This document shows positions 1-44,701 of a stretch of 64,000 nucleotides of DNA, in pieces. This DNA comes from Selaginella moellendorffii (Eukaryota; Plantae; Lycopodiophyta). The stretch spans positions 971,325 to 1,035,324 of the forward strand of contig NW_003314261.1 of the NCBI RefSeq assembly GCF_000143415.4. The letters run 5' to 3'. The notes beneath the pieces are model-generated. The model had not been told where the DNA came from and searched no databases. It was given only the letters and a program-made list of their open reading frames with translations. The position numbers were made by a program, and so were the translations under genes. Each line of letters begins with the position of its first letter. Within the stretch, counting starts at the first letter, position 1.

Positions 1-2976
1 GCAATCCTTCGTATATCCGGAACTTGGTTTGAACCACTCCACAGTTACATTGAAGGAGTTAGTTTCCGCGTCCTCCTTTGCATCAGTGATGCAGTGCCCC
101 ACCCATATCATTTGTTTTTTATTACTGGGTCTGACAAGCACGACCATTCCTTTGCAGACCTGTACTGGATTGAATGCTGAATCCGGCTTCTTGTTCCTCG
201 GCCCACAATAGTGATCCTCAACATCGTTATCTGTCACTGCATTTCCAGAGGACATTATTCCGCTACTATCTGGTGCTCTGGGTTCTGGCCAAAAGGACTC
301 TTCCAATTCTTCATATACAACCGGCCCATTTTGGATAGCAGATATAATCTTCTCCCAGTATTCGAGCAAAGGCTTGCACCTCTTAAAATAGGATTCTCCA
401 CCAAACACCAACCCCCTCTTCCAGAAGGCAATATGCTGTCTAATCCCGGCCACTATACTTTCCTGGTTTTTGAGTCCATCCGGGTGCATCGGCCGTGGGG
501 AACCCTGAGGAATCATAGGTTCCCCAGTTATGGGATCTCTCTTGAAGAGTTCAATGCCATCCACTGGCAGCCACACTGTGTCCCATTCTCTCATCTTGTA
601 CCTCATCACTGGAGCACCGTCACGCATGCTGAAATGAAACTGAAGAGGCTTGGAGTGGCCAATCAGCATTTCGAATCCGTCCCTGATGTAGCCTCTTACA
701 AACCCCTTAAAGTCTGGAACCTCTGTCACAAGTGCAGCTTCAACAGTGCCTTTGATGCAATTTTGGAATTCATCGTAGAGTTGTGGGAGGGTGAGGACAT
801 TGGATCGCCGGAGGGACTCTGCCAGGTGACTGAACATGGCATCGACGTCTTCATGAGTGTGCCCAACCATGAGAAAGCCAAGTGTAACCGTTTCAAATAT
901 GCCTTTGGCAACAAGCATCGCCAAGTACGCGAAGACGTACATGTTTTTGTTCTCACTGCCAGCATTGTCTGTTTGGAGCAGAAGATGGGGTGGAAGGCCA
1001 CATCGGCCGCAAGAACTTCCTTGAGATTCTGCTTCGTTTGGATGAGGCTGTGCATTCACCGGGCGACCAGCCTCGTCGGAATGGCATGAGGCCTCACGTG
1101 ATAACCCTACAATCTGACGGCCAACATATTCACTGGGATGGCATGGGGCCCCACACGATACTGCAAGCCTTTGCTCCTCCTCCAGCTGAACCCTGTATGG
1201 GGTTCGATCGACAAGGGCCTTATGCAAGGGTTGGCCGTTCAGCTCAGTCTGCGCACTTTGCAGAGACCTTAAATGTTTTACTAGGGACGCAATCATCATG
1301 TTTGCACCCCCGCCACCCCATAGAGGTACAAAGAAGTTCCCATAGTTCTGGGCACCATGCCCATGAGCGATTATGCCAAACAGAGACACAGGCAGCTGCA
1401 TGGATGAAGAGATTGCCTTGGGGGCAGGATTGAGTCGAGGTAAGCACGTCTTTTTCTGGTCCATTTTGTCGTGGATGATGCAGAGGTAAGAGTCAGGTCT
1501 CTCCATGGAGAGAATCCTGTTATGATAATATGCAGTCCTGCAGCTTCTCTGCTCGATGTTGTGGTCGAGCCGCCTTCTAACCAACGTCTCTCGCTCTTGA
1601 GCGCTGCAAGAATTCTTTGACAAAGCCATTTTGATAGCAGTGCACTCGTCACACTTTGAAAAGCTGGAGTACTTTCCTATACTCACATCCCTGAATCTGT
1701 TGCTCCACAATCTACTAAATCTAGATTGGCTCAGCTTTCTGTAGCCATTACTCTGGAGTTCCTGATTCACATCTTCCAATATGGCCCCCTTGGTATACAT
1801 GGAAGGGAGAACTCGTTGGGTGTCTCGTGTTCCATCTTCCAAGAGGCGGGTTTTATGTGGTTGCTGCTCGCTACATGTCTCGACAAACCTCTTGAAGATT
1901 GCCTCTCCATATACAACATGACACCTGGTTTTGTGCGTACCGTCGTTCCCATGGACTGCCTGTTGAACCCTTTGTTCCTCGAACTCAGTTTTGATTCTGT
2001 AGAATGTGGTTCGANNNNNNNNNNNNNNNNNNNNNNNNNNNNNNNNNNNNNNNNNNNNNNNNNNNNNNNNNNNNNNNNNNNNNNNNNNNNNNNNNNNNNN
2101 NNNNNNNNNNNNNNCCTTCATGCAGACCAAACCCCTCTGGAAGACCATGCCCCCCACCTGATGTTCTGAAGCATCAACAGATGACCGTAATGCCTCATAC
2201 ACAAAATTGCGAGCTGCCTTCCAGGACAATGTCTTGTATCTGCCTCTCTCTCTTTCAATAGCATCCCAATCAGCTTGTTGACAGCACCTCCTCTTGCAAC
2301 AAGCAACTGTCGAGACCATTCGAACCTCCATCGCCATTTTCTGCCTTTTCGGTTCGTTGCTCAGATCCCTTTGGCTGCGCTGTAGGAAGGTGTACTTTCT
2401 TTTCCCATGAAGAGATGTTCTGTCATCAGTTGTAGTGGTGTTTGATTGTGAATCCTTCACATTCTCAAACACTAAATGCCTCAATTTCCACCGCACAATG
2501 CTTCCAATAGTCAGACTGTTTTCTTCTGTGTCAACAACCTCTAAAATCGCAACTCCAATATCATCCCAGCCCAATTCTTGATTAGCAACCGCATCTCTTG
2601 GATCGACAACTGTGGCTAAGCCCTCAGCTACCACCTCCCCCTCGGGGTTGTTTAGAAACACCTTTGCCTGAATCCATGTAGCACGGTTCTTAAGATCCAT
2701 GGAGGGAACATGCGTCGCACTTGCGCTGTCCCTAACATCTACTTTCTTCTGCAGATTTTTCAAGGCAACAACAACATTTACCCCGACGACCATCTCTCCT
2801 CGTTCAATAGCGACCACATTCCCATCGAAGACGGTCTCTACTGATACAGCAGCATTGCCTTCCCCAAGCCTTTGACAGTGTATAACAAAGTTCCGATCCA
2901 TAGACACAAGGGTCCCTTTTGCAACTCTCTTCCCACCATTCAAAATGTAAACCTTTTCCCCAACCCTGAAGGCCAT
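1..2976 (-). CDS. Sola1-like (DUF7869-type) DDD transposase, 3' end outside window
   Basis: Manual translation from ATG 2976 (MAFRVGEKVYIL...) stays open across the 100-N gap to position 1. Motifs: CCKRRCC...VC, HGN, FSKCDEC, YLCIIHDKMDQKKTCLP, GIIAHGHG, LLLQTDNAGSENKN, FLMVGHTHEDVDAMFS. C-terminal GMVVLVRP..IWVG..VTVEWF segment. Confidence 0.85.
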   Translation of the reverse strand, partial: MAFRVGEKVYILNGGKRVAKGTLVSMDRNFVIHCQRLGEGNAAVSVETVFDGNVVAIERGEMVVGVNVVVALKNLQKKVDVRDSASATHVPSMDLKNRATWIQAKVFLNNPEGEVVAEGLATVVDPRDAVANQELGWDDIGVAILEVVDTEENSLTIGSIVRWKLRHLVFENVKDSQSNTTTTDDRTSLHGKRKYTFLQRSQRDLSNEPKRQKMAMEVRMVSTVACCKRRCCQQADWDAIERERGRYKTLSWKAARNFVYEALRSSVDASEHQVGGMVFQRGLVCMKXXXXXXXXXXXXXXXXXXXXXXXXXXXXXXXXXXRTTFYRIKTEFEEQRVQQAVHGNDGTHKTRCHVVYGEAIFKRFVETCSEQQPHKTRLLEDGTRDTQRVLPSMYTKGAILEDVNQELQSNGYRKLSQSRFSRLWSNRFRDVSIGKYSSFSKCDECTAIKMALSKNSCSAQERETLVRRRLDHNIEQRSCRTAYYHNRILSMERPDSYLCIIHDKMDQKKTCLPRLNPAPKAISSSMQLPVSLFGIIAHGHGAQNYGNFFVPLWGGGGANMMIASLVKHLRSLQSAQTELNGQPLHKALVDRTPYRVQLEEEQRLAVSCGAPCHPSEYVGRQIVGLSREASCHSDEAGRPVNAQPHPNEAESQGSSCGRCGLPPHLLLQTDNAGSENKNMYVFAYLAMLVAKGIFETVTLGFLMVGHTHEDVDAMFSHLAESLRRSNVLTLPQLYDEFQNCIKGTVEAALVTEVPDFKGFVRGYIRDGFEMLIGHSKPLQFHFSMRDGAPVMRYKMREWDTVWLPVDGIELFKRDPITGEPMIPQGSPRPMHPDGLKNQESIVAGIRQHIAFWKRGLVFGGESYFKRCKPLLEYWEKIISAIQNGPVVYEELEESFWPEPRAPDSSGIMSSGNAVTDNDVEDHYCGPRNKKPDSAFNPVQVCKGMVVLVRPSNKKQMIWVGHCITDAKEDAETNSFNVTVEWFKPSSGYTKDC
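2015..2114. other. Assembly gap (100 N) inside transposase ORF
   Basis: Run of n; the flanks are in the same reading frame (VCMK...RTTFYR). Confidence 0.99.
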
Positions 2977-3330
2977 TCTGAAAGTGCAGAAAAGAAGTTA
3001 AGACCATACAAAAAATGATTGGAGAATGGCCTAAATCATAACATACCAAATAGCATGAGGCCACATGCCATTATTCAAACATGCTATTGACACCCACGTG
3101 AAATTTCGCATTCACAAAATTGGCATGAGCCCTCATGCCATCTTGATATACACACAGCTGCAGGCAAGTAAAAACATACATGACAATACGCTAGCCATGA
3201 AATTGCAAGGGCCCAAGATGGCATGTGGCCTCATGCCATTTCTAAATGTGGTCCTAAACCATTCCATGGTGAACATACCAGGAAGCACAAGTGCCGAATA
3301 TCAAGAGGAAGCGGTAGCCACACCAAAGAC

Positions 3331-3470
3331 AGTGCCGCTCGCAACACCGCAACTACTCGTAGCGCCGCTCGCAACACCGCAACTGCTCGTAGCGCCGCTC
3401 GCACAAACTGCCACTCGCATAAACTGCTGCTCGCAATGCCGCAACCGCTTGTAGACGCAAAAACCACAGC
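3331..3470. repeat. Short tandem array (~30-bp unit GCGCCGCTCGCAACACCGCAACTRCTCGTA) upstream of transposase
   Basis: Two near-exact units plus degenerate copies visible. Confidence 0.8.
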
Positions 3471-4250
3471 TCACAACGCCGCTTACACAAGCAGCGCTCA
3501 CTGCGCTCAGTGGAACCAAGAACACGGCGCACAAAAATGATAGACCTAGGAATGAGTTCGAGAATTCAAAAATAACACACGCTTGAACGTCACATCAAAT
3601 CCTCTGACAAACCAGATCTTATGATTCCTCTGACAAATTTCAAACTGAGTAGCTTCTAGACTTTGCTGTCGGAGGTTGAACTTTGTCACATCATGTCCTT
3701 GCCTCGATTCAGCTGTGCCATGTCAGTGATTCGAACTTTCCCATGCCATATCAGCGATCCGCGCCAAGATTATTCGCCGTGTAAAGGAATAATTATGCTG
3801 TGTGTGTACGTCCATTTATGGCAATATAAGGCCATACGCCATTCAAAGAATAATGCTAGTCGAGCATTTTTTGGTGCATTTTTTGGTTCAAAATTGCATG
3901 AGCCCACACGCTATAAAGTTTACCTGTACCAAAAATAGAAATAGCTTTATTTACTTGGGAATTTAAGTGGTTGAGGCATTTTTAAACTTACAAACACATG
4001 CCCTACTTACATTCATTTGGTTGCTTAAAATTCAAAAATATTATAAACCTTTCTTTTTGCATTTTCAATGTTTTCAATTATGGTTTTTGATTTTCGCAGG
4101 ACCAGCCTAGTAATCTATTTGCATCCCGTCATGTTTATAGCTAGCTTTCGTTTGTCCCCTTCGCTAGCCTGAGATACATCTGCTCGGCATCTGCCTCTTA
4201 CAGCATTTGCCCAGAAAGGGCATCTTTCTTCACGCAGCATTTGCCACATG

Positions 4251-4275
4251 TTTAGGGTTAGGGTTTAGGGTTTAG
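4251..4275 (+). repeat. Telomere-like/telo-box motif TTTAGGG(TTAGGG)TTTAGGGTTTAG
   Basis: About 3.5 plant telomeric units in the region between the divergent genes. Confidence 0.6.
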
Positions 4276-5517
4276 CAATTCAGTAGCTTGATAAACATGC
4301 AAATACAGAACTTGATGCAAAATCCTTTGATATGTCACAATGCCCCTAGGACCATAAACACATTTCAATAGAGAGGGTCCTTTCATTTCATAACTCCTTA
4401 CGTAGATCTTGGTGAAACCAGAGTTAGTGAAGTTGGTTTTTTGTGATCCCGCATCTGATTGTGATGTCCCTTTGCAGTGTCGATGGAAAGGTCAATGCAC
4501 ACCAAACTGTAGAATCTTGGAGCAAAATAACGGTCGGATCTATGGCAAATGCCCCTGAAACATTGTAAGGCTCGTGTGGTCTCATGTGGTGTCCGATCGA
4601 GATGCTTCTTTGCAGGGTCATTAAGAAGGACATTGTATACCATTCTGTAAAATCTAGTTGCGATCTAACGGTTGGATCTCCAGGAAACTCAAAACAATCT
4701 CGCGCGTGTCAGAATATTCTAGGAATATACTCCTATGTGCTCCTGAAAATGGCATGCGGCCCCACGCCATTCAAGAGATAACGCCAGATGACGCCGAGCA
4801 TTTTTTGGTGCATTTTTTGGGATCAAAATTGCATGAGCCCACACGCTTGAACGTCACATCAAATCCTTTGACAATTTATTTAGCTGAACATCTGGCATTT
4901 TTGGAAATACAAGATGCTTTGGAATATCCAATCATGCATGGTATAAATATAGCGAGGGTATTAAATGATATCCCAATCATGATCTTTCTTTTGGATTTCG
5001 CGTGCATGCAGTCCGAGGAATGATGACGTTGCGGATTTCTTTTGGATTTCACGCATGCGCGTGCCGATCCAGAAATTAATGGTGGCGCCCAAGTCCGAGG
5101 AATGATGACGTGGCGGGATTACCAACCGTTGTGACATTTCGCGCGTGTGAGGTTAGGTTTTGCATTTTGCTTCGTACTCGCGCTCGCATACTCGCCCTCG
5201 CATCGCGCTCCCACTCGCGCTCCCACTTCTCTACAGGTTTCTCGTGTGCATCGGCGTCCACTCGCGCTTGCATCACACTCGGGCTCGCATCGCGCTCGTG
5301 TGCATCGGCGTCCACTTCAAGACACACCCAGTTTATAACTTCGCCGCCAACTCCGCCGCCCACTCTGCCACCCACACGCAGCCCACTTGGTGTCCCGGGA
5401 GATTTCAGCGCCACTCTCCAACTGTAAGTGGCAGAGTAGCCTTGCTGCTATGATCCGCTGCACACACAGTGCACATTCGCCAGCGAGTCCGGTTGTCACG
5501 CCTCCATTCGGCTTCAA

Positions 5518-8500
5518 ATGGTAAGTCTTTTAGGCCAAGTAGAAAATGGCATGAGGCCACATGCCATTCAGTAGCAACATTGGCATGCACCGATTGGGCT
5601 CTCGAGTGCAGTCCGGTTACAGATGGCGTGTAGCCTCACGCCATCTTAGGATGCAGCCTTAAGACATCTGATGCAGTGGTGAATGGCGTGTGGCCTCACG
5701 TTATTTCCAGCTGCTAGCTTTTCATCTGTCAGCTCTAATTGTTGTGCATTTCTGAATAGGCGAGGAATTGCGTTCTTCTTCCAGCCACTGTCAATGTGGA
5801 TGCAGAGAAGGGGGAGGAGCTCACCAGTTGGACTTTTGGGATGAAAGGCGAGGATCTGAGGCTGTACAACACAGATGGTGGGAGAAAAGAATGCATGGGG
5901 ATCCTCATCTAAGTGACAGACACTCCATGCAGTTCCATGCAAGAATATGGACTGGCACTTGTGGTAGAGACAGCGTCTGCCTTCAAGATCCACCTTGCAC
6001 ATCCTAGCGGCTTCCCGGAGGGGGGCAGCGGCTATGAGGAATTCCTAGAGGGAGCTAGGGAGAGGTTGTCCAGGAGGCCCACAATTTCAAAGACGCTGCG
6101 GGTCTATGAAGATCACATGGAATCCACGGACCTCACCTACGGCGATGTTCAAAAACTATATTCCAACATTGAGCCGTTGAGAGTGCCTCCAGTTTGCGAA
6201 GCGAAGGGGAAGGGGGTCGATCTGGAAACTACCCCGAAGCAGAAAAGGGTGGTCAAGCTCAAGCCGACGTCCGACTCTCCTCCAAAAAAGAAGCTACTCG
6301 GTGATGCCATTGCCTTGGGTTCGAACACTACACCCACCAAAAAGAAGAGCCGCAAAGAGTAGAAAGAGCAAGAAGAGGCAGCAAAAATCGTCGCAGATAA
6401 TAGTACTTGTTACTATTCCAACAAAGTATATACAATCGACGTGAGCCGTATCGACATCCAAAGCAAATACAACCACAGGCTAGTATCTGATGAGTGGGTG
6501 GAGAAACTGAAGCAGAAGATGCTGGCAAGTCCAGTAACACCCGACATCACAGACGTGATCCCCTACTACCGAACAATGAAGGGCGAGACGAGGTTTCTAG
6601 ACTTGATCAATAGGAAGGTGTTGGACGATCAGAACATCCGGTTCTATGCCGTCTCCGGGCAGCATTCTAGCTTGGCGATGCAAGAGATAGTTGTGGATAT
6701 TATGGTGGGTGAGGAGGTGAAGAAAGTTTTCAAGACAAGAGTTGTCCGCCTGATAAAAGGCAACTCGCCCCTCCGATCTATCATATACATTTCCCACGCG
6801 CAGAATGTCAAGCAAGAAACGTGCTACAAATCGGGTCTGCACGAGACATTGGCACAAACACGGAAGCTCTAGGTTCAACTGAAGAAGCCACAAAAACCAG
6901 GACAAGGACGTGCACTAGCAACTAGCGCCTGGCAGGTAAGCCTCGTTGCATGTGGCCTCACGCCATTTCCATTGCAGGAATTCTCGAGTCTTCTCTCAAA
7001 AACACTGGGAGTCAATGACACACTCAGCATCCATAACATTCTACTCGCGACAAAAGTTGTTTTTGACAAATGGGTAGATGTGCTGAGGAGGTACCATGAC
7101 AGAGAGTTGCCAAACTCAATGGGTGTGGAGGACGGCCGGAAGCCCAATGATTTGAAGCTCAACGCCTTGCGTTTCTCGCGGTCTCTAGACGACGACGACC
7201 TTTTGACAGTGGCTAATGCTCTTCTACGTGGTGAGGTAGTCTTCAACAAGACCAAAATGACTCCCGGCCATATTGTGACATACGAGGACTTGTGCACGAC
7301 TCTGAGAGCTCGTGCGCTATTGAAGGATTGGATCTTCGAGCAAGTGGCCGTGGAGAGGGTGAGCATCGACACCACGCAAGAGATGATGGAAGCGCTAGAT
7401 TTGTCAAATGAAGACATCGACGAGTACGTGAAGGGGGCCCCCAAGTTCATCGATCTGCTGCGGGATGCCACGAAAAGTAAAGCTGAGAAGTTGGATCAGT
7501 ATCCAAATTTCATTAAGATTGATGTCGACCGCCGGCTTCAGAAACAGCTCGACCCCGCAGCAGAGGCCTATCGAGAACCTTACCGGGTATACTTGAATTC
7601 GGATGAGGATCAAAGGTGGAGGAGCATCGTTTCCCGCGGAGATAAGCAGGTCAAGAACATCTTTTGTGTGATGGACTTTACAAACGAGGAGATCACTCAT
7701 GCAGACGAAATCAGCTCCATCATTGACTTAATGGTGGGACTTGCGGAGGTGGAATCTTCAGTCCACTATATGATCTACGACTTCGAATCCTATCACAAGT
7801 TCTGGAAGGCCTTGAACGAGGTGAAGGCTCGGTTGAAAGGCAAGGAGATGTGGGAGATCCATGGGATAATGGCTAAGAAGAAGATACCGACGAATGTCCG
7901 CATCTTCACATTCGCCCTTGTTATTGGTCCTGCAGCAGAGTGGGACTGGAGTGACTTCCCAGCTTCGTTCGACAAGGCCAATCGAATTGATCTGAGGGAG
8001 GTCAATTTACCCGTGCCTGAGGAACTGAAGACGGCTATGGAGCTTTCGAATCCAAAGAAAGCTCCAGGTGCAGCATGGGAAATGCTCAGCTGGGTCTTCA
8101 ACGCAATAGCGGGTGGGTCACCTGCTTCCGACTCCAAGGGCAAATGCGTTGTCGAGTACAACTGCGGTGGACTATTCTTTCAAGCCGCACTACTCAAGGG
8201 TGTCCCGTGTGTTGCGGTGACAAACTCCATTGAAGAGGTGACTTCAATGGAGCATATAATTACAGTTGCCAAAGAAAAATAGTATCTTCTCTGCGAACCT
8301 GGTGAGTACACACTTTAAGTTTAAATGTTATCTCACAAGCTCTGTATGCAAGAGCGTGGCCACCCCCAGATGCTGAAACGGCGTTAACAGCTACTGTTGA
8401 AGATACCCATGTTGGGCCGAGCTCACAACCTGTACAAGGTAAGGTCACGTGAGGCCTCACGCCATTTTGATTATAGATCATTGTGAATATTCAGACACGA

Positions 8501-9430
8501 GGACTGAAAAGCACACTGGTGGCGCATCGAAGAAGGACAAACAGACAAGCAATAGGAAAAAAGGAGGTACAAATTATATTTGCAATGGCGTGTGGTCTCA
8601 TGCCATTCCTTGCAGGAGACACTTCTTCAAAGGCAAAACAGGCAAGCACCAGCCAAGCTCAAACTGACAGTGGTCATAAAAAGTGAAAGCACGTTGGACA
8701 GTCGTCGAGATCAGAGGCATTTGATTCGAAAAGGAAGAAGGGCAACGAAAAGATGATAGGTAATGCCTCGCGGTTATGGCGTGTGTGCTCATGCCATTCA
8801 TTGCAGATCAAGGGCTGAGTGAAGCAGGCAGTCACCACCTCCTGACTTAGATTCCTATGGCGGACTCCCCTTCCCCAATCTCAATGGAGAGGTACAATGG
8901 ATGAGGGATGCTTTTCAAGTCAGGGCCACGTTTTTCTCATCTCGTCGTCTTCGAAGGGTGCAAGAACGTGCAAAAACCATGTTAAGACAGTCGGGTGAGG
9001 ATACGGTCCTAGGTCACGCACTAAAACAGGCTATGGATGTCTTGTATTTTGAGATGGAGACTCGGCCAGATGATTTTCCCAAGATGGTCCTGGAAGAACA
9101 AGCCATCCAGCCTGAGCAGCCTATGGAAGAAATGCAGGAGGGGGATGAGGAGCCAGAGAAAGATAATGAGCAGGAAGAGCAGAAGGACGAAGAGGAGGAC
9201 AAAGAAGAGGAGGACGAAGAAGAGGAGGACGAAGAGGACTTGGATGGTCCTCACAATGGTGACGATCACAATAACGATGACGACGATGATGACGACGATG
9301 GCCAGCCTGAGGTGGCCAAAGAGCAGCGGAGGAAGGTCATACAAGACAAACCATCAGGTAAATAATAGTACATCCATTCCTAACCTTTTACCATTTCTAA
9401 CATTGTCCATGTAGGTCGCAGAGCAAATGG
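5518..9430 (+). pseudogene. Transposon cargo gene: ParB-like N-terminal domain + degenerate beta-class N6/N4 DNA methyltransferase-like fold + acidic tail; at least 4 premature stops
   Basis: ATG 5518, intron 5521-5759, then one frame through ORFs 5913-6362, 6441-6872 and 6972-8282, broken by TAA 5910, TAG 6360, TAG 6870 and TAG 8280. ParB-like IDIQSKYNHRLVSDEWVEKLKQKM...FYAVSGQHSSLAM...ISHAQN. MTase-like EMLSWVFNAIAGG..GKCVVEYNCGG.FFQAALLKGVPCVAV. Mini-introns 6936-6977, 8439-8476, 8567-8615, 8760-8806. The 3' exon structure is uncertain. Confidence 0.65.
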
Positions 9431-10239
9431 TAAGTAGAGATTATTCAGTTGAATTTACAAACTCTAGCCTTTAGTGTCGAGGAAGGATAGTGCCAAGCAA
9501 GGGTCGAAACGTATGTCCAATCCTTCAGAATCAGCAGTGCGCCCAAGTGATATCGGTCATAGTTCCTCAATAGCAGTTGATGGTAAATACAGTATAGTCG
9601 ATTCAATGTGCTAATGAGTTTGTTTTTAGTAGCACGGGAGGATACCATCTCAATCGAAGGGAGATATTTGGACATGCATATGGATCCACCAGTGGACTCT
9701 ACTTGCCTACAAGAGTCATCAGAGCTGGTGGAGGCTACTATCCATATCAACGCCAAGCAAGCTGACCACGCTCCACTTGATGCTGCCCATACCACTAAGT
9801 CAATCTTGTCCACGTATCCAACTGACGGTGACTAGGCGCCATTGGACCCGCATGAGGCCGCCCCAGCCGCCGAGCCGGTCGTATCCTCATTTCCAACGGA
9901 CTCAACGTGTGCCCAATCGTCTGACTACGCGCCGTTGGAACCTCCCTACACCGCCCCTGCTGCCTGTTCGGTCATGTCCACTTTGCCAACGGAGGCACCA
10001 ACTGAAATGGCGTGTGATCACACGTCATCGGAACCACCCCATGCCACTGTTGAGCCAGTTGTACCAGAGTCTACAGCTGAAATGGCATGTGCCCACACGC
10101 CATCGGATGCGATTGACCCCACATTGTAGAGGAGAGTATTTCCGCCCTTCACGTTTCCTCGACCAAAACCCTCTCAACGACCATCGGGAGCACCATTCGC
10201 TAATATTGTAGATGGTAAAATTGACTTGTACCATTTTTT

Positions 10240-11124
10240 ATGCTGACGCATTTCATTTCAGAGTCACGGCGAAGGTACTGTATCATTTTTGATCTGAACG
10301 GTGTCCTTTTCTCCCATGAGCGTGGCTCGTCCTCGAATGTCATTGCACCCTCCAAAGCCTGCAGTCGCAAGTTGGTCAAAAGAGACAGATTCACATTAAT
10401 CACACGGGAGAAACTGCGGGATCTAATAATGACTATGCGACACTTAAAACAGAGGGCCGGGTTCAATTTGCAATTGGGAGTTTGGACATCCATGATGCGC
10501 CACAATGCATTAACGTTGCTACAGATGATGCACGATCAGATGCGAGTAATATTACCATTTGACTTTCTCCTAACGCAGGAGGATTGCTTGACTATGGTCC
10601 ATGTGAGGGGTAGCAAGCCCATCTTTGTCAAGCCAGAGGCTGTAGTGATGAACCGGACTGCTAGGTCAAGTGAAATCCTCATCATCGATGACTCGCCGAT
10701 TAAAACTGCAACGAACACGCATACATATGCAGTGCACCCCATCTCTTGCAGTATGGAAACTAGGGAGAAGAAACCGTATGTTCTGGGGGACCTTGCAAAA
10801 CGGCTTGGAGCGATGGTGATAGAGAACCGGCCAGTCCAGGAGGTGGCTGCAGAAATCAACCAAATGGCAGATGGAACGGTATATCAGAAGCTATTTGATC
10901 GGACAGACACCAGTCATCATTTATGGCATGTATATTGTCTAGCCAAGCACTATCCGCATCTCCATAATCTGCTCAACCGGATGGGTTCTTTGACCACTGA
11001 ACATGAGCGTGGACGTATTAGAGAAGAGATGGCATTACTATTGGGTTTAAATCCTGATAGTGTGGAGAGTGATGAAATTCCAAGATTATTGTATAGGCGT
11101 TGGAGGCAAAAAATAATAGTCTGA
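10240..11124 (+). CDS. FCP1/NIF-like HAD-superfamily phosphatase domain (terminal exon; upstream exons uncertain)
   Basis: IIFDLNGVL (motif I, DxN variant), GVWTS, LLTQEDC, FVKP, ILIIDDSPIK..N...AVHP. Splice acceptor tttcag at ~10261. Confidence 0.8.
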   Translation: MLTHFISESRRRYCIIFDLNGVLFSHERGSSSNVIAPSKACSRKLVKRDRFTLITREKLRDLIMTMRHLKQRAGFNLQLGVWTSMMRHNALTLLQMMHDQMRVILPFDFLLTQEDCLTMVHVRGSKPIFVKPEAVVMNRTARSSEILIIDDSPIKTATNTHTYAVHPISCSMETREKKPYVLGDLAKRLGAMVIENRPVQEVAAEINQMADGTVYQKLFDRTDTSHHLWHVYCLAKHYPHLHNLLNRMGSLTTEHERGRIREEMALLLGLNPDSVESDEIPRLLYRRWRQKIIV

Positions 11125-11524
11125 GATGGCATGTATTTATTTAAAAATGTAACTTATTATGGCATGGGGTTCCATGCCATTGTATTAATATTAAAAGACA
11201 ATTCTTTGAGAGGATTTGCATTATACTAGAAGTGTTACAGCATGTTATTGGAAGTCTACAAAGTTGTTTTATTAATAAGGGGAAAGTAAAGATTGAATGG
11301 GGACTTGGGCTCCACCTAGACTTGGAGCAATTGAGCCAATATTAAAAGGATGGAAAGAAATTAGACGACGATGACAAGGAGAAGAGAGAGGTGAAGCAGT
11401 GGCAGGGGGAGGAGAAGTGATTGAGTAGACATTTCCTTGTTTAAAATAAAATGGCATGTGCCTCAATGCAGTTGAATTTTGTTATATTTATATACTATAT
11501 AAAGGTTTGGAAACCTTATTTTAC

Positions 11525-11565
11525 AAGTGGGATAATGACAATTCCCACTTTAACGAAATAGAGCT
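11525..11565. repeat. Right terminal inverted repeat of the large transposon
   Basis: Reverse complement GCTCTATTTCGTTAAAGTGGGAATTGTCATTATCCCACTT versus MITE end GCTTTATTTCGTTAAAGTGGGACTTTTCATTATCCCACTT. Confidence 0.85.
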
Positions 11566-12037
11566 TAAGAGAAATTAATCTGAAAAGTGATGTTCCCACT
11601 AGAACATCCTAATTTCCCACCATCTAACCATGACTCAAGTTGAGGTAAACAACTTGTGTTTACATAACCATCTTCGTGCCACCACATCTAGATTTTATTT
11701 GCATTTGCCTCATGTTCTTCTTCAAAGGATGCAACTTGCCATTATTTATAGAATTCCTTAAACACTAATTAAAACTCTAGTTTGATAAGGTGGTAATATT
11801 GGTTTAGGTTTGAGTCTAGTGGAACTTATAAGTCCTTTCATGACCTTTTAAGGGTTGACCATTCCTAAAAAGTACTCAAACACCATTCCAGTTCACAAGC
11901 TTATCAATTCACTTTAGCACAATATTGGAGAGAAACTTCCAAAATACGAAATGCTCAAAGAACGAGCACGAAGCAAGCAATAAGTGAGTCTCTAAAAAAG
12001 GGACACAAGAGGACCAACACATGATATGTGGAGGAGT

Positions 12038-12430
12038 CCGAGATGGACCTGATATGGAGTCCAAGATGGAGTCCAAGATGGACCTAAGATGGAGTCTGAG
12101 ATGGACCCAAGATGGACCTAAGATGGAGTCTGAGATGGACCCAAGATGGAGTTCAAGATGGAGTTCAAGATGGACCCAAGATGGAGTCCAAGATGGACTG
12201 ACGTGGAGTTCAAGATGGAGTTTCAGATAGACCCGAGATGGAGTCCGAAGTGGTGTCTGAGATGGACCTGAGATGGAGTCCAAGATGGACCCGAGATGGA
12301 GTCTAAGATGGAGTCCGAGATAGACCCCCGAAATGGAGTCTGAGATGGAGTCCGAGATAGAGTCCGAGATGGAGTTTGAGATGGACCCGAGATGGAGTCT
12401 AAGATGGATATCCAAAAGTATAGTAGGGAG
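12038..12430. repeat. Degenerate 10-12-bp tandem array (GATGGAGTCCAA / GATGGACCCAA) within a TE-like relic
   Basis: About 30 units visible; followed by CCAAAAGTATAGTAGGGA, also found inverted at 24835-24852. Confidence 0.85.
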
Positions 12431-12664
12431 AGTGTGGAGGTTGCCCAGTGGAGCTAGTTTGGCCAAGAAAGGCTAGTGTGACCCAGAAAGGCTATGCCCA
12501 CGTGTTGGATGATGATATATTTACTGAGGAGTCTAAAGTCAGATGTAAGCAACCAAAGGGAACGACTCGAGAGACGATCCATGGGGTTCAAATATAGAGG
12601 GAAAGGGCCCATGAACAAGAGTGCACCCCCTTTTCCAATCGGTTAAGGGTCTTGGGATAGTTGG

Positions 12665-12720
12665 AGTTAAGCGTCCTTGGGTTTGAATAGTACTAGGCTG
12701 GGTGACCTCCCGGGAAGTCC
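12665..12720 (+). pseudogene. 5S rRNA-derived fragment (internal Pol III promoter core: A box, IE, C box)
   Basis: AGTTAAGCGTCCTTGGGTTTGAATAGTACTAGGCTGGGTGACCTCCCGGGAAGTCC closely resembles plant 5S AGTTAAGCGTGCTTGGGCGAGAGTAGTACTAGGATGGGTGACCTCCTGGGAAGTCC. The 5S 5' half and 3' end are absent. Confidence 0.85.
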
Positions 12721-15129
12721 AAACTTAGGAGCTTACACTAGAGTGAATATAGACAGACAAATGGGGTGGTTTGGTGAAGTGTTCAAAAGTCAACTTTAGT
12801 TCCCCTGGGAGATCGAATGGTCGATGCTCCCAGTCCAAACATAGGTGGCACTACCTACTTGGATAGTTGGTGTGGCTCAACAAAACCTCACTCTAGCCCC
12901 ATGGCTAGAGCACCCAAAGGTGGAAGGTGGGGAGAGTACCCATGATGTTTACATAGGGCCACGAAAAGTCCTAGATTATGGAAAAGAAGAGGGGTAGTCC
13001 TCTAATGTAGTGACCAAAGATACGATCACATAGTGAGGAAGTCCCAAAGGATAGTGGGACTTAGTGGTCGGGCTGGTGGGCCTTGACCCAATGGCAGTGT
13101 TGGTGAATATGACCATGGAAAGAAAGGGACTTGGTGGGGACTGAAAAAAGGATATTAGGGAAGGTTGTTCTTCATGTTTGTAAGCATCCTAAAGATGCTA
13201 AAGAGTGGATTTGAGATGATCACTCATGGATAGCCAACTTAGTTTTTGAGAGATGGGACTGTGATGCAAATGGTGTTGGACCACTAGTGTGGCAAAGATG
13301 AATGGACATAGCCTTAGTGTAATGAGCTGATATGTCAGTGGTACCATTGGGTGTCGGTCATGGGATCGGACATGTAGAGCACTTGGACCAAGTGCAAAGG
13401 TTGAGTGGCATAAATGCCATTCTCAAAGGTAGCAAGCCCTAAGTCTGGAATAAAACTTATGGAGGTTATGAGTAAGAATCCTTCAAATGGTCAAAGGTGT
13501 GGTTAAGTGACTAAAGTAGAATGGAAAATTTAGCGCTTACAATCTGTTTGAGAGACAAGATCTACACTAGAGGTGGGGTCCATTGTAGACATCTTGGAAC
13601 GATGGGGTGCTTTTACTTATTGACAACTTGGTCTAGAAATAATTTTTGTGGATGAACTCATATAGACAAGTTTGTTTTAGTTCAAGAATGAAGTCAACTT
13701 TTTATCACAACTTCCCTTCTCAAGATTCACACATCCAAGATTTTATCTTAAACAATATAATATGAACAAAAGATATTATTGTAACATATAAAATACAACA
13801 GACATATCTCCTTAAGTTAGTAACAAGTTATACATGCCATAGTAAGTCCTGCAAGTTAGCCTTGTTTAGTTAAGTCTTTTGCTAATACAGATTGAGTAAT
13901 GTGATTGCGATAAAATCCTTAAAGATGGTCTTTTGAATATACTTTGGAGTTTGTAGATGAGTTTTTCACAACCTTTTTCTACACAACATTTTTAAAATGG
14001 TTGAAAGAACTCCTTTATATCCCTTCTTGCATTGGATATACATATATGCTAATATGCATTATAGCTTTTTTAGCCATTCTATCCCGAGGAAAAAAGTAGT
14101 ACATTTTGGCCTTGTAGATAGCATAACATATAGGAGCATTTTTGCATAATCGACACTTAAATATAACAGCAATGGTATCATGGGTAGAAAGATTGTTGCA
14201 AACCCTTAAAAATTATGGAATTTCTACAATAATCTCAATTGCATACTTCATCCACACAATCCAAATACCTACTATAGTGAACTATACATATTGTGCCTTT
14301 GAAATGTTAGAAGTGTGTAATCTTGATTTTACACTAGTTGTGGATATCCTACTCCTTTTTTGTTTGGAACTAATATTGTTGATAAAATCTGGTAGCTTGA
14401 AAAAGATGTTGCCATTGTAGTGGGATGGAAGCTCACTCACGAGCCTATATAGAAACAAGTGCATATCAATTGAAAAGCGGGAAAGCTGGAAAATATTGCT
14501 AACAACTTTGAATATTTTTTAAGATGGAGTAACAACGTTAATCCCGGTGTGTGGGATTATAAGATGAGCATACCTGGATTGAGAAACCACTCCCTAGGCT
14601 ATTGGGTAGGTTCATCTCTAAGAATACTTGCTAAGGCATGATAGAAAGTGCAAAGCTATCCTCTTAATCTGGAGGAGAATGACCAAAAAAAAGATGTGAA
14701 GCCAAAAGCAAGTAGTAAGAGGATAGAACCAAACCATAGAAATCAAAAGGCATAACCAAGGATGGTTATGCTAGTTGGGAGTGGAAAATCAAGTGGGGGC
14801 TCGAGGGTGTTGTTGCTAGCAACCGTGATGCCATGGAGAGTTTAAAGTATGGAATTGTCCATACTAGACCATATGGCAATTAGAAAGCTTGCTTAGAAAG
14901 AATTTAGAAAATGTATAGCAACTTTGAATGGCACCTCATAAAGCTTTCAAAATTTTCAAAAAGCCTATAAAACCCATCCTTCTTAACAACACCAAGATTT
15001 GGGTGAACTACCTTAGACAGCTCTACACTTAGCAGATAAGAGACTTAATCACTTCCCAATCACAAGCCCCAATCCAATTCAATGAAGATAATAGTCTTGC
15101 TACTATTGATCGCCTTCACAAATGAAAAG

Positions 15130-40890: not shown

Positions 40891-43070
40891 TTATGTATCT
40901 ATCCACATCCTCAAAGAAGATACATCCACTCCAATTCTTGAGGCACACCACCTCCTCTTCTCTTTTGCCAGTTGAGTCGACAATGGTGATACTTGCTGTG
41001 TGCTCGCTTGAACAAAGTTGACGGACATAAAAACGAGCGAGTCATGAACAGGAACCACAATGTGCTCCTGTTCCTTGGGCCTGTCCATGCAGAAGTTGAT
41101 GATGAAAACCTGTGCTGAATGCTAATCATGGTAAAGAAGCGCCCTCGTCATGTGCTCGCTTATTTGTGCCATAGTACCGTTTGCAACAATCTCCACTGCA
41201 AACTTGGAGAAGTTGGTACCGTCGTGAATAAGAGAGTCACAGCGCATCCCAGACCGCCTCTGATCTGGCACAATCTCCTCCTTGACTTCAGGTAGAACTG
41301 TCGCTGGAATGCAAGGATAAGCGTGCTTCAATATGGCCTTCATGCTGCATAGAAAGAGGAACTGGTGCATGTATTCGGAGCACTCGGGCCTGCACATAAC
41401 TTCTCCGTCCAGGTTCTTGATGGCCTGAAGAAGCAGCCAGACGCGGTCCAGTCAAGTAGCACAAGGAGGTGCATCCACGTCGTCGCAGAGGGTAGTGCAC
41501 CTCCGGAGCATAGCAGTCCGAAGCAGTGGCGTTGAAATGCATACATAATATGTTTCTGCCCCACTTTCCTCATCGTCACTGTCCCAATCTGTAACTGCGA
41601 GCACCCCGTGTGCAATAAAATCGCGGAGTTGCACCAGCGTCTCGGGTCCGCAATATAGACCTGGAATCTCCAGGTACCGAATCAGCAGCTTGCACGCCTT
41701 GATATCTTGCTCCTGTTTCCGTATAAAGCCGAGAATCCTATTGTATGTAGCCTGTCCGTATGTAAGCTCCCAGGTGATACGACTCTGCTCGCCGGAGCCA
41801 GCGCCTGAACGTCCAGAGCTCCTCCTGAACAAGGTAAGCTAGGCAAGTGCCTGTGAGGCCCTTGTGACCGCCAGTCCACTGCATTATCGACGCTGCAATG
41901 CTGTCCACCTCGATGGCCACACTTGGATGATCCGCTGCTGCCTGTTGTAATGCTTTATTTCGTTAAAGTGGGACTTTTCATTATCCCACTTATGGTGTGT
42001 GGCCACATGCCATTTTTATAATAACAATAAAAAATTGAAGTTTTAATTTTATAATTTATAAATTAAAAACTTTTCATATGATTTTGTGTTATAATATTGT
42101 GAAATATAAAAAAATAAATTAAAAAACTGATAGAAATATTAATAAATATTAATTAAGTACTAGGAAATGGCATGTGGACACATGCTAATTAATGTCCCAC
42201 TTTACTGAATAAGTCCCACTTTAACGAAATAAAGCATTGTAACAGTTCCCTCACGTGTTCCAGAGTGAACCTTGAGGATGCCAGGACATGGTCGTGCGGA
42301 AAGGGAGACAGATGACTTGAAGTAGAACTTGGCATATGCGTGCGCTCAGTCCTTGCTGCATGATTGTTGTATTGTGCTTCAAGAAGATCCTTTACAGTCT
42401 CCACCCCAACAAGCAGGAAGCCGTGCAAGTTGTACGCATCCTTGTCGCTCTTGATGCTTCTGATGGTGGCAAAGAACTCGTGCACGATGTCCGACGGTAT
42501 GTTCAGCAGAGAATCTGCCTCGTCGAGGATGACAGTCACCAGTGTTTGCAGCTTGCTCCTTACGAAGAGCGACTTGAAGACGAGAGGTGTATAGCATGGT
42601 AGCTGCTGCTTGGGGAAGAGAGTGGGACACTTCAAGGTGAGGGTGTCACAGATATAGCCCCAAAAGTCATGGCTGCTCCAACTCATCCTCGCACCCTCCA
42701 GTCCATCCAGGTAGATCAAAGTTGCTTCGGACTGTAACGTGAGCTTCCTCCGAGCTGCCAGCACCATTGTCGACTTTCCACTCTGTCGAGGGCCACACAG
42801 CACGCAGTACTTGCCCTGCGCCAGGTCAGATACCAGGTCGACCATGTCGGGGGTGATATAGTAATTCGACACTGGATCGACTGCAAGCCCAGCTGCAAAT
42901 CGTCGCTTTGGACGTGACTCATTTCCAGCCTGAACCGTGTAATCGAGAGGTGGAGCGAGCTTGAAGTCTCTCGCCAGAATGATTTCCCCTGCCCTGGATT
43001 CCAGCATCAGTATATCACAACTCGTTTCGATCTCCCTCGAGATCCTCCACGCCCACCTCTTTTGTGTGCA
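40891..43070 (-). pseudogene. Crinkler-like P-loop NTPase + PD-(D/E)xK nuclease gene, disrupted by MITE, frameshift and stops
   Basis: Walker A CGPRQSGKST, Walker B VILDEAD, WTGGHKGL, C-terminal VLPEVK..RCDSLIHDG..FAVEIVA...EHMTRA..Y. Removing the MITE restores ELLQQAAADHP. Frameshift at ~41760, TGA at 41452, TAG at 41122. Confidence 0.75.
41951..42236. mobile_element. 286-bp MITE, non-autonomous derivative of the large transposon at 1-11565
   Basis: Perfect 26-bp TIR TGCTTTATTTCGTTAAAGTGGGACTT; 6-bp TSD TTGTAA (41945-41950 / 42237-42242); subterminal palindrome copies at 41992 and 42167. Confidence 0.95.
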
Positions 43071-44701
43071 CGCTTCAATTGAATTTAACTTAACCTAAAT
43101 CTTGTAATTACTAATAACAATTATTGAGCTATGTTTTTATATTTATGCGTATTATACATTTATAGTTTTTTATGTTTGACTTTTTTATTTTTTATTATAT
43201 TTTGATTGTGTTCTATATCTCTCATCTGAGGATTTTTTTAATGTTTGTATCACAGTTGAAGCTGTATAAGCACAATACTGAATTTTAGTTCCTAGTTGAA
43301 TAAATTTATCATAATGCTAATATTGCAGATTAAAAGCATTTTGTTGTATGTATTGTTCTTGCTGCTGCTGGTTGTATAGAAATTGTGTTCTTGATAATGT
43401 ATAATTATTAATTTTTTATTTGTATTCACTTAAAACATGGCTCGAATTATGGAATTTTGTGAACATAATTGTTTTCCTACTATATCAATTTCAAATTTTA
43501 TCCATAATATTTCTTTATTTTGAGATATATATTTCATACTAAGCCATCTTGTGTTTTTATATTTAAAGTATCTCAATTTTTATTTCTTTTTTTATTATTA
43601 AGCTTCCTGGAACATTTTGTATTACTTGATCATTATGTTTCTTTACTTGTTTATTTGTATAAAGTACAATTTGTTGTTATTTTTTATTAATTATCTCTAT
43701 ATTTTCTTCATTTTGCTCAGATGTTCTTATTCTATTTAGTTATCATCCTTTTGTCTCATTATTTCTGTAAGTTCGTCCTTCCATGGATGTATAACTAGTA
43801 AATGAGTAATAATAACTCATATTGTTTATTAGGAGAAAACTTCACTGTGACAGGCTCCATAATAGAAAAAGTGTTATAAAGCTTGAAGTGGGTTTTCTAT
43901 CATATTAGTCATGTTTGTAATTGCTATTGACATTTTTGGTATGGACAAAGAAAATAAAAAAGCATAAAATTAGCATTAACCATCATTAAAGATGACCTTT
44001 TTATTGATTTTTATCCCAGGTATAAACCATTTTTTATATCTTATCCACCAACACCACCATTTCTGTTAAATTGACCATACAATATCCATCATTAACAAGG
44101 TTGAGAAACCATGCAACTACAAGCACACACACACACACACACTTCCAGAAACTTCGAAAGCATGTGTTTAATTTAATAGATCCTTTTTTGTCATATCAAC
44201 TTGAGACTACTGGATCCTTAAGCTCTACAAATGGCTAAGATTGCTTTTGCTTTGCAAATATTCCACTGGTCAGAGATTAGGTCCTCCACCAAGAGGTTGG
44301 CCCGCATCACGTCATGGGAAGAGACGCTCGACAAGATCCAAGCTTGGCAGTCCAACGCTCTCCATCACGTAAGTTTCAATGTTGTTTTCTCATAGTTCTC
44401 TCTTTTAAGTTTTACTTTGTCTCACTCGTTAGGGGGAGGATTGCTGTTCTACCCGATCGGATGCTGGATCATTGAAGCTCTAAAGCTGTAGACCAAGAGC
44501 ATATGTGCCAAATACCAAGAGTCATGCCTGGCTCACAGGTTCGTCTTTGAGATCTTCACTTGCTAGAATATCTAGGTGCTGCCAAGACGATCTTTTCAGA
44601 ACAGTTACATTGGACGCACGACTCATCGCCCTCGGAAGTTAGGGCTCAAGAGTTGGAGGGGAAGACCCAAAGTTTTTGGAGAGGAAAATCCTTTCGTCCA
44701 A

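Follow-up and report, generated by a model that had tools for sequence, protein, structure and literature searches.

A 22-bp palindrome recurrent in the introns and other non-coding parts of a Selaginella DNA transposon: a candidate binding site of an element-encoded protein

The 64,000-nucleotide (nt) stretch of Selaginella moellendorffii DNA analysed here (contig NW_003314261.1; hereafter the window, with positions counted from its first letter) opens with a DNA transposon in which a 22-bp palindrome recurs across the whole element, including one intron of 42 nt that now appears to consist largely of this motif. We lean towards the reading that the palindrome is a motif of this transposon family and likely the binding site of a protein encoded by the element, most probably the product of open reading frame 1 (ORF1), a gene divergent from the transposase gene.

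According to the mechanism that we propose, the palindrome would be the element's own protein-binding site, and the ORF1 product, judging by its predicted fold and by precedent, its most probable reader. The element would keep many sites from end to end, placed only where conserved protein sequence stays intact, namely in introns, leaders, the spacer between ORF1 and the following ORF2, disordered linkers and subterminal DNA. The right arm of the motif (CTCAC or CTCAT, 15–17 nt before the AG) would also provide the branch site of the mini-introns. By analogy with ParB-parS, the algal ParB-like accessory proteins and VANC, a bound protein would label the DNA of the element or regulate it, and the candidate outcomes are self-recognition, anti-silencing and assembly of the transposition complex.

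Distribution of the palindrome in the element

The window from ~1 to 11565 is a decayed copy of a very high-copy cut-and-paste DNA transposon, as indicated by a DDE transposase, terminal inverted repeats (TIRs), a target-site duplication and many copies, the left end lying beyond the window. In a DNA run (X1), 38694 contig pieces were found over 8.8 kb of the element with a summed depth of 0.6–0.9 million, and at the right end the depth fell about 450-fold, from 638107 in the bin 11332–11625 to 1410 in the bin 11626–11900. Three occurrences of a 17-nt TIR word, CCCACTTTAACGAAATA, were counted in the window: one marks the right end of the element, and the other two, in inverted arrangement, bound a derivative miniature inverted-repeat transposable element (MITE).

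A scan with the motif ATGGCGTGWGGCCWCACGCCAT allowing up to three mismatches gave 14 matches in the 64 kb against 0.00 expected, and found no copies in the host genes of the window. With up to six mismatches, the number of matches in the window rose to 20; the element accounts for 18 of them and the MITE for the other 2, one just inside each TIR. Repeat-family analysis over 1–14000 also grouped 18 motif copies in one family, and a degenerate copy at ~11451 added from this family brings the number in the element to 19 over ~11.6 kb. Only 4 of the 19 lie in coding sequence, which makes up 64% of the element (binomial P=1.5e-4), and these four are confined to a length-variable linker of the transposase and to a Pro/Thr/Ser/Ala-rich stretch of ORF2. 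Three copies are clustered in a putative intron next to the start of the ORF1 gene (intron 1), and three more in a candidate intron in the 5' untranslated region (UTR) of the divergent transposase gene. Parts of the element that carry the motif outside ORF1 and the spacer are listed below, together with its right end and the MITE.

1–2976, minus strand: coding sequence of the DUF7869-type DDE transposase, continuing past the window start, with the ATG at 2976–2974.
1081–1159, minus strand: two in-frame motif copies (1081–1102 and 1138–1159) in the transposase linker, which is missing or very different in homologues over alignment columns ~850–920.
2978–3278, minus strand: candidate 5' UTR intron of the transposase gene, GT..AG, 301 nt, with motifs at 3050, 3120 and 3218, based on splice signals only.
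3279–5520, no strand: divergent intergenic and leader region with degenerate motifs at 3893, 4749 and 4828; the plus-strand exon 1 ends with the ATG 5518–5520.
10007–10103, plus strand: two motif copies (10007–10028 and 10082–10103) in the disordered region of ORF2, in an open frame.
11159–11472, plus strand: two 3' non-coding motif copies (11159–11180 and ~11451–11472), from the motif scan and the repeat family.
11530–11565, plus strand: right TIR, defined by the word shared with the MITE and the drop in X1 depth.
41951–42236, minus strand: MITE derivative of 286 bp with matching TIRs, a TTACAA 6-bp duplication on both sides and one motif inside each end.

Most copies of the motif are imperfect at two W positions, without compensating changes. 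Copies are found in either orientation, between the genes and within the MITE, and in view of this and of the uncompensated W changes a double-stranded DNA site for a dimeric protein fits better than an RNA structure. Many copies have GCATG or CATGC in place of GCGTG or CACGC, as predicted by CpG decay; the observed/expected ratio of CpG is 0.75 in the element and ~1.0 in the host genes.

A 42-nt intron at a conserved position

The first-pass annotation of this DNA had proposed four GT-AG mini-introns of 42, 38, 49 and 47 nt (6936–6977, 8439–8476, 8567–8615 and 8760–8806), each with one palindrome close to the 3' splice site, and a longer first intron with three. All these coordinates were confirmed, the sequence of 8439–8476 is exactly as had been quoted, and in all four segments the motif ends 9–11 nt before the AG. 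The 5521–5759 intron indeed holds three copies, at 5546, 5623 and 5683. The four segments also share an AG/GT(A) donor and a YAG acceptor (the slash marks the splice or exon boundary here and below). The introns and the ORF that they interrupt are the following.

5521–5759, plus strand: first intron of the ORF1 gene, 239 nt, GTAAGT..AATAG, with the three motifs; predicted, the ORF1 frame opening exactly at 5760.
5760–8282, plus strand: ORF1 coding sequence with copy-specific in-frame stops at 5910, 6360 and 6870 and the true stop TAG 8280–8282, based on homologues and family-majority letters.
6936–6977, plus strand: mini-intron of 42 nt, phase 0, in frame and stop-free, with the motif at 6945–6966, based on a homologue gap and a shared intron position.

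Comparison with relatives indicates that 6936–6977 is truly an intron and that its position has been conserved in evolution. Its boundaries, CAG/GTAAGC ... CATTGCAG/G, agree with the donor and acceptor consensus. In a BLASTP alignment with a Selaginella homologue (P0049) a 12-residue gap lies exactly over VSLVACGLTPFPLQ, the peptide that the unspliced segment would encode; it is correct, as had been pointed out, that the segment is in frame and free of stops. Two gene models of Selaginella are distinguished by two residues, AS, exactly at WQ/EF, which fits alternative acceptors. In four clusters of unannotated relatives the unspliced ORFs end in ..WKV or ..WKVG, that is, in the exon end plus GT, or otherwise start with MIILQ/SF or MIILSILQ/SF, the intron tail plus the exon. 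The one relative compared at the DNA level, on a metagenome contig (L001), has a GT-AG intron of 101 nt with 20% GC at the same codon boundary, ..PKWK/SFVE.. The relatives sharing this intron position have ~20–25% protein identity.

The motif was not found in the L001 intron, and the best match anywhere in that contig has 9 mismatches. Since distant relatives have the intron at this position, and that of L001 is free of the motif, the intron would be much older than the motif. By the same comparison, an ancient intron has apparently shrunk to 42 nt in this family and is now largely the motif. The suggestion of the first-pass annotation that insertion of the motif creates introns is thus not supported for 6936–6977: the position is common to relatives, and a relative's intron at the same place lacks the motif, which is the observation that had been named in advance as contradicting the proposal.

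Some copies of the family carry a 12-nt insert within 6947–6956, which makes the intron 54 nt long, still in frame and stop-free. This variant was seen in the run X4, whose ends resemble a vector polylinker and which was regarded as cloned DNA, and in loose ends of X1 contigs. The L001 intron holds a 27-nt direct repeat of its own (two copies in 242–315, 93% identical), which may be that family's own repeated motif.

Short segments between ORF1 and ORF2

The proposal that all four introns lie within the gene holds for 6936–6977 but not for the other three, which are situated past the ORF1 stop at 8280. A comparison with the family majority over 5880–9000 listed 22 differences; the in-frame stops at 5910, 6360, 6870 and 8848 are among them, and TAG 8280–8282 and TGA 8684–8686 are not. 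The Selaginella homologue ends at the position aligned with the TAG at 8280. Because this TAG is family-wide, the three segments belong to a non-coding spacer of 618 nt from the ORF1 stop to the ORF2 ATG at 8901. A single ORF running through them was considered and rejected: a single TGA interrupts it in this copy, but TAG 8280 and TGA 8684 are both present in the family majority. The removal of 8439–8476, 8567–8615 and 8760–8806 is not needed for any conserved reading frame and, being beyond the consensus stop, they could only be UTR introns. The candidates in the spacer, and the ORF2 model that follows, are listed below.

8302–8339, plus strand: candidate GT-AG segment of 38 nt without the motif, based on splice signals only.
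8439–8476, plus strand: candidate mini-intron of 38 nt with the motif at 8444–8465, based on splice signals.
8567–8615, plus strand: candidate mini-intron of 49 nt with the motif at 8585–8606, based on splice signals.
8760–8806, plus strand: candidate mini-intron of 47 nt with the motif at 8776–8797, based on splice signals; its 5' part, GTAA-GCCTCG, is like that of 6936–6977.
8901–11124, plus strand: ORF2, with an acidic region, a disordered region and an NIF/FCP1-like domain; spliced model, Pfam NIF E=3.8e-5.

On the plus strand from 5400 to 11565, four of nine AGGTA sites have a motif no more than 32 nt downstream, as against 5.7% of all positions (P=1.1e-3), and all eight GGTAA sites coincide with proposed donors, with none in ~4.5 kb of exon. 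CTCAC or CTCAT is found 15–17 nt before the end of all four segments, and the motif-free introns of the element have CTAAC, CTAAT or CTGAC at 14–15 nt. Short introns are normal for this element: ORF2 has four AT-rich ones, 9358–9414, 9430–9474, 9583–9629 and 10215–10261, of 57, 45, 47 and 47 nt, which restore its frame. From these splice signals, the three spacer segments are plausibly UTR introns of a transcript spanning ORF1 and ORF2.

Predicted folds of the ORF1 product

An exhaustive HMMER search for ORF1 homologues gave 11 weak matches (best E 5.7e-10), and a word-based search among proteins of similar length gave no match. Structure models were made for the parts of the product on either side of the 6936–6977 intron; two domains were recognised.

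6420–6830, plus strand: predicted ParB/sulfiredoxin-fold domain with a conserved G-Q-H; model pLDDT 70.8, structure search.
7569–8279, plus strand: predicted beta-class (N6/N4) DNA methyltransferase-like domain; model pLDDT 66.

The N-terminal domain, modelled from the residues encoded by 6363–6935, is predicted to adopt a fold of the ParB/sulfiredoxin (Srx) superfamily. In the VIA search the model matched Myxococcus xanthus ParB with Z 11.1 and a root-mean-square deviation of 1.9 Å over 95 aligned residues; the top 32 rows were all of ParB/Noc/KorB/PadC/Srx type and the next row had Z 3.4. A Foldseek search likewise pointed to this superfamily. The residues G99, Q100 and H101 are invariant across the ORF1 relatives; we take this G-Q-H to resemble the DGQHR of DndB-type proteins. 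A profile search of the PDB with the N-terminal domain returned one irrelevant match only.

For the part after the intron, the last 235 residues of the model match beta-class DNA amino-methyltransferases, and the C-terminal domain is accordingly predicted to be a beta-class methyltransferase-like fold. The top 19 VIA rows were all such methyltransferases, with Z 11.0–8.7 followed by a row of Z 6.8, and Foldseek again pointed the same way. A profile comparison with M.RsrI was weak (E=0.18), aligning a CGG/TGG-containing stretch with motif I, and the top named clusters of the ESM Atlas were all PF01555 (scores 0.84–0.88), which serves as a lead only. Beta-class methyltransferases are characterised by a (D/S)PP(Y/F) catalytic loop and an FxGxG motif that binds S-adenosylmethionine. 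A DPPY-like tetrad is not recognisable at the expected strand end, which reads VMDFTNE here and DSAN, DATT or DANS in relatives.

Alternative explanations

Several observations weigh against the reading of the palindrome as a site for the ORF1 product in introns and other permitted places. The ORF1 product is a putative reader of the motif, and the single copy inside each TIR of the MITE would suit binding by the transposase no less than binding by ORF1. Searches of Pfam and NCBIfam at E up to 1 gave no family for ORF1 or five relatives, a ParB-like helix-turn-helix was not identified in ORF1, and the confidence of the fold models is middling (pLDDT 70.8 and 66), four of the five N-terminal domain models being below 48. 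The introns of the host bHLH gene, of ~95 and ~400 nt, are far longer than 38–42 nt. The contigs of X19/X20, labelled 'RNA?' by guess, cover intron 1, the 6936 donor, 8760–8806 and 10215–10261 in unspliced form; however, they also cover intergenic DNA and are indistinguishable from DNA, so that they were counted neither for nor against splicing. Finally, avoidance of coding cost is not absolute, as four copies lie in open reading frames. The idea of the first-pass annotation that introns host binding sites without such cost therefore survives in part: it agrees with the 4 of 19 coding copies and with the one in the conserved ORF1 intron, but three of the four segments proved to be in the spacer, and the four coding copies sit in open variable or disordered frames.

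The MITE also provides ground for regarding the palindromes as subterminal repeats bound by the transposase and needed in cis for excision and integration, with the internal copies as spill-over or reserve and ORF1 in another role. We consider this rather unlikely. Repeated sites for the transposase or TnpA near the ends are known in En/Spm, Ac and other plant elements; the 286-bp MITE, necessarily mobilised in trans, keeps exactly one copy inside each TIR, and the last copies of the element are ~110–400 nt from its right TIR. At least 13 of the 19 copies, however, are over 1 kb away from the right end, the left one being beyond the window, and copies spread over the whole element and tripled by both gene starts are atypical of cis sites for cutting. 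The predicted N-terminal domain of ORF1, moreover, belongs to a superfamily known for binding palindromes. A separate question is whether 8439–8476, 8567–8615 and 8760–8806 are introns at all. That they are untranscribed or unspliced spacer, whose GT and AG flanks stem from local duplication of a motif-plus-flank unit, is doubtful but a substantial possibility: they lie past the consensus stop of ORF1, TGA 8684 still interrupts the 'spliced' frame in the family majority, 38 nt is far under host intron sizes, and by chance GT and AG also flank the intergenic copy at 4749. Two of the segments share a 31-nt unit with 90% identity (repeat family D4), so that an acceptor-like tail may simply have been copied along. 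The enrichment of AGGTA upstream of motifs and the coincidence of all GGTAA sites with proposed donors speak for splicing, as does the presence in all four segments of AG/GTA, YAG and CTCAY at 15–17 nt, like the frame-validated introns of the element.

Two further readings make the palindrome a part of the splicing apparatus or of a mobile intron. A role as an RNA hairpin that controls splicing efficiency or acceptor choice in very short introns, which the first-pass annotation had put forward, is weakly supported and, in our estimate, highly improbable. The segments 8567–8615 and 8760–8806 fold to -14.5 and -16.2 kcal/mol, which is moderately better than shuffled sequences (z -2.53 and -1.72), the stem would enclose the putative branch site, and all seven plus-strand motifs in 5521–8806 have a YAG 4–11 nt downstream as a possible alternative acceptor. 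But 6936–6977 and 8439–8476 fold no better than shuffles (z -0.15 and -1.17); in this copy their left arms are degenerate, with 7 and 8 of 11 positions self-complementary. The imperfections at the W positions are uncompensated, and many copies, being intergenic, in the MITE or on the opposite strand, are probably in no mature or precursor RNA of fixed orientation. The stems, of only ~8–12 bp, are also too short for a Dicer substrate, and a mirtron was rejected. There is likewise very little probability that a cassette of ~40–50 nt (GTAAG - motif - TTGCAG) is mobile within or between copies and makes introns where it lands, in the manner of introners. The likeness of 6936–6977 and 8760–8806 over their full length, including the 5' GTAA-GCCTCG, is consistent with such a unit, which would have both splice sites and a branch-like CTCAY. 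Yet the sole case in a coding region occupies an intron position of distant relatives whose own intron is without the motif, none of the 12 X1 joints listed over 5880–9000 excises any of the four segments exactly, no copies were found in host genes of the window, and the MITE in an AAA_22-like ORF has no GT..AG pair that restores the frame (hand check).

Returning to the palindrome as a protein-binding site, a bolder version may be considered, which we judge unlikely as a whole. The donor, the palindrome with its right arm as branch site and the acceptor would have fused into a 'cassette intron' of ~40 nt that shrank from an ancient 100-nt intron, was copied into the spacer and carries a dense array of self-recognition sites for a ParB-fold protein through the transcription unit.

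Decay of this copy

ORF1 contains in-frame TAA and TAG codons in this copy. The majority letter of the family in X1 is C at 5910, 6360, 8848 and 9833 and G at 6871; since these give sense codons, the in-frame stops are attributable to C-to-T and G-to-A decay of this copy. The genome uses the standard code: a ciliate-type code in which TAA and TAG are read as Q was rejected on account of these sense codons and by the host PsaF gene, whose stop is a TAG exactly at the end of its Pfam domain. A gypsy-type frame with reverse transcriptase, RNase H and integrase elsewhere in the window (45821–47374, minus strand) has five in-frame TAA or TAG codons and no frameshift, a decay of the same C-to-T style.

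Other features of the element and the window

The plus-strand exon 1 of the ORF1 gene ends exactly in the ATG 5518–5520, directly before the GT of intron 1. Consequently, any downstream phase-0 acceptor, such as that at 6978, would give an in-frame product with the same start codon, and this arrangement may be a device for alternative products. Alternative products are also known from En/Spm.

The spliced model of ORF2 has 675 codons with two internal stops in this copy, one of them at 9833. A further candidate, the 69-nt phase-0 GT..AG intron 10061–10129, would remove the motif at 10082 together with the TAG at 10127, the one in-frame stop of ORF2 that is otherwise unexplained; at the stop that is left, the family majority has a sense codon. 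The first motif of the NIF/FCP1-like domain, encoded by 10262–11124, reads FDLNGV, and that of the NIF/FCP1 family is DxDx(T/V). To judge from its sequence, ORF2 may encode an inactive phosphatase-like accessory protein of the transposon.

The transposase matches PF25273 (DUF7869), its sole Pfam assignment, with E=1.9e-42. Its 48 homologues include moss, liverwort, coral and sponge proteins, and the alignment with them shows conserved D..D..E-like acidic blocks. The name DUF7869 was found in none of the papers searched, and no lengths of target-site duplications of Sola elements were found in PMC4455052 or PMC5751038. An assembly gap of 100 N at 2015–2114 falls within the transposase gene.

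In the intergenic region of the element a plant-type telomere-like run (CCCTAAA/TTTAGGG, ~3 units) is found at ~4252–4275. Loose ends of X1 contigs with GGGTTTAGGG occur at 4258, and another copy has a telomere-like insert near 5893–5980. About 450 nt past the right end of the element, 12010–12454 is an array of degenerate GGAGTCCAAGATGGACC-like repeats of 11-12/23 nt with 13 registered copies.

The rest of the window is plant-like nuclear DNA, with an intronless PsaF gene encoding a transit peptide, a PPR gene, a bHLH gene and a gypsy-type polyprotein. Islands of ~45–54% GC are separated by spacers of 26–36% GC. The MITE breaks an AAA_22-like ATPase ORF (41682–43484, minus strand). It was also considered as an intron of this ORF and rejected by hand check, no GT..AG pair splicing it out in frame.

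Comparison with known systems

The giant transposon Sola1-1_Ec32 of Ectocarpus has, opposite its transposase, an accessory gene with ParB-like and N4C/N6A DNA methyltransferase parts, and its authors suggested that the accessory protein binds and modifies its own transposon (PMC12477816). The present element is similar in that the accessory gene is divergent from the transposase and is predicted to combine a ParB-like N-terminal domain with a prokaryote-type amino-methyltransferase-like domain. It differs in its land-plant-like host, in its size (~11.6 kb or more, against 21.5 kb) and in a methyltransferase catalytic loop that is not recognisable. Neither a repeated palindrome nor a link to introns is mentioned in the consulted part of the Sola1-1_Ec32 article (PMC12477816).

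In the red-algal Plavaka transposons of Bostrychia moritziana, the ParB-like accessory protein PAG3 is encoded beside inverted-repeat arrays (10.1101/2025.02.11.637652). A ParB-like N-terminal domain on the accessory protein and inverted repeats of the same element as proposed binding sites are common to both systems. In contrast to PAG3, which has a 2OG-oxygenase domain and tandem arrays by the gene, the domain here is methylase-like, and the motif is scattered as single copies, with one in each short intron or segment of the spacer, and in threes in the 5' introns.

In Arabidopsis VANDAL21, VANC21 binds YAGTATTAY motifs in introns and in intergenic and terminal non-coding regions (PMC5735166). 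As far as that description goes, VANDAL21 is the best analogue for the distribution of the motif. The VANC motifs, unlike the palindrome, are short, non-palindromic and tandem, and binding and hypomethylation by VANC were demonstrated experimentally, whereas binding of the palindrome here is only inferred. To our knowledge, VANC is unrelated to ParB in sequence or fold.

The predicted fold of the ORF1 N-terminal domain is like that of the bacterial proteins ParB, Noc and KorB with their sites parS, NBS and OB (PDB 7bnk, 7bm8, 6sdk, 7ol9 and 8qa8), and the logic of a dimer that reads a palindrome recurrent on its own replicon is like that of ParB-parS. Unlike in bacterial ParB, identity is only 8–16%, the GERR-type CTP motif is replaced by (S/D)GQH(S/T), and no ParB-type helix-turn-helix was identified.

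Short repeats that coincide with introns and carry splice signals also recall introners (PMC9860276, PMC12130899). Introners, however, make new introns in many unrelated host genes, while this motif is confined to its own family, all 20 matches being in the element or its MITE, and the one intron that could be compared with relatives predates it.

Accessory genes of ParB-like type on transposons and the accumulation of motifs in non-coding transposon parts have already been published. New here are the land-plant-like host, a clear single palindrome, its placement at one per mini-intron, and what appears to be an ancient intron reduced to little beyond the site. ParB-like accessory proteins of transposons have only recently been noted in algae, and this element, with hundreds of copies, offers a candidate protein-site pair whose long CpG-containing palindrome lends itself to simple tests of binding and of sensitivity to methylation. 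It is also an example of how cis sites can be retained in large numbers from end to end of a mobile element without damage to its genes, by means of introns, leaders, spacers and disordered linkers. If segments of 38–49 nt are indeed spliced in a host with introns of 95–400 nt, the element would be a useful test of the minimal size of plant introns.

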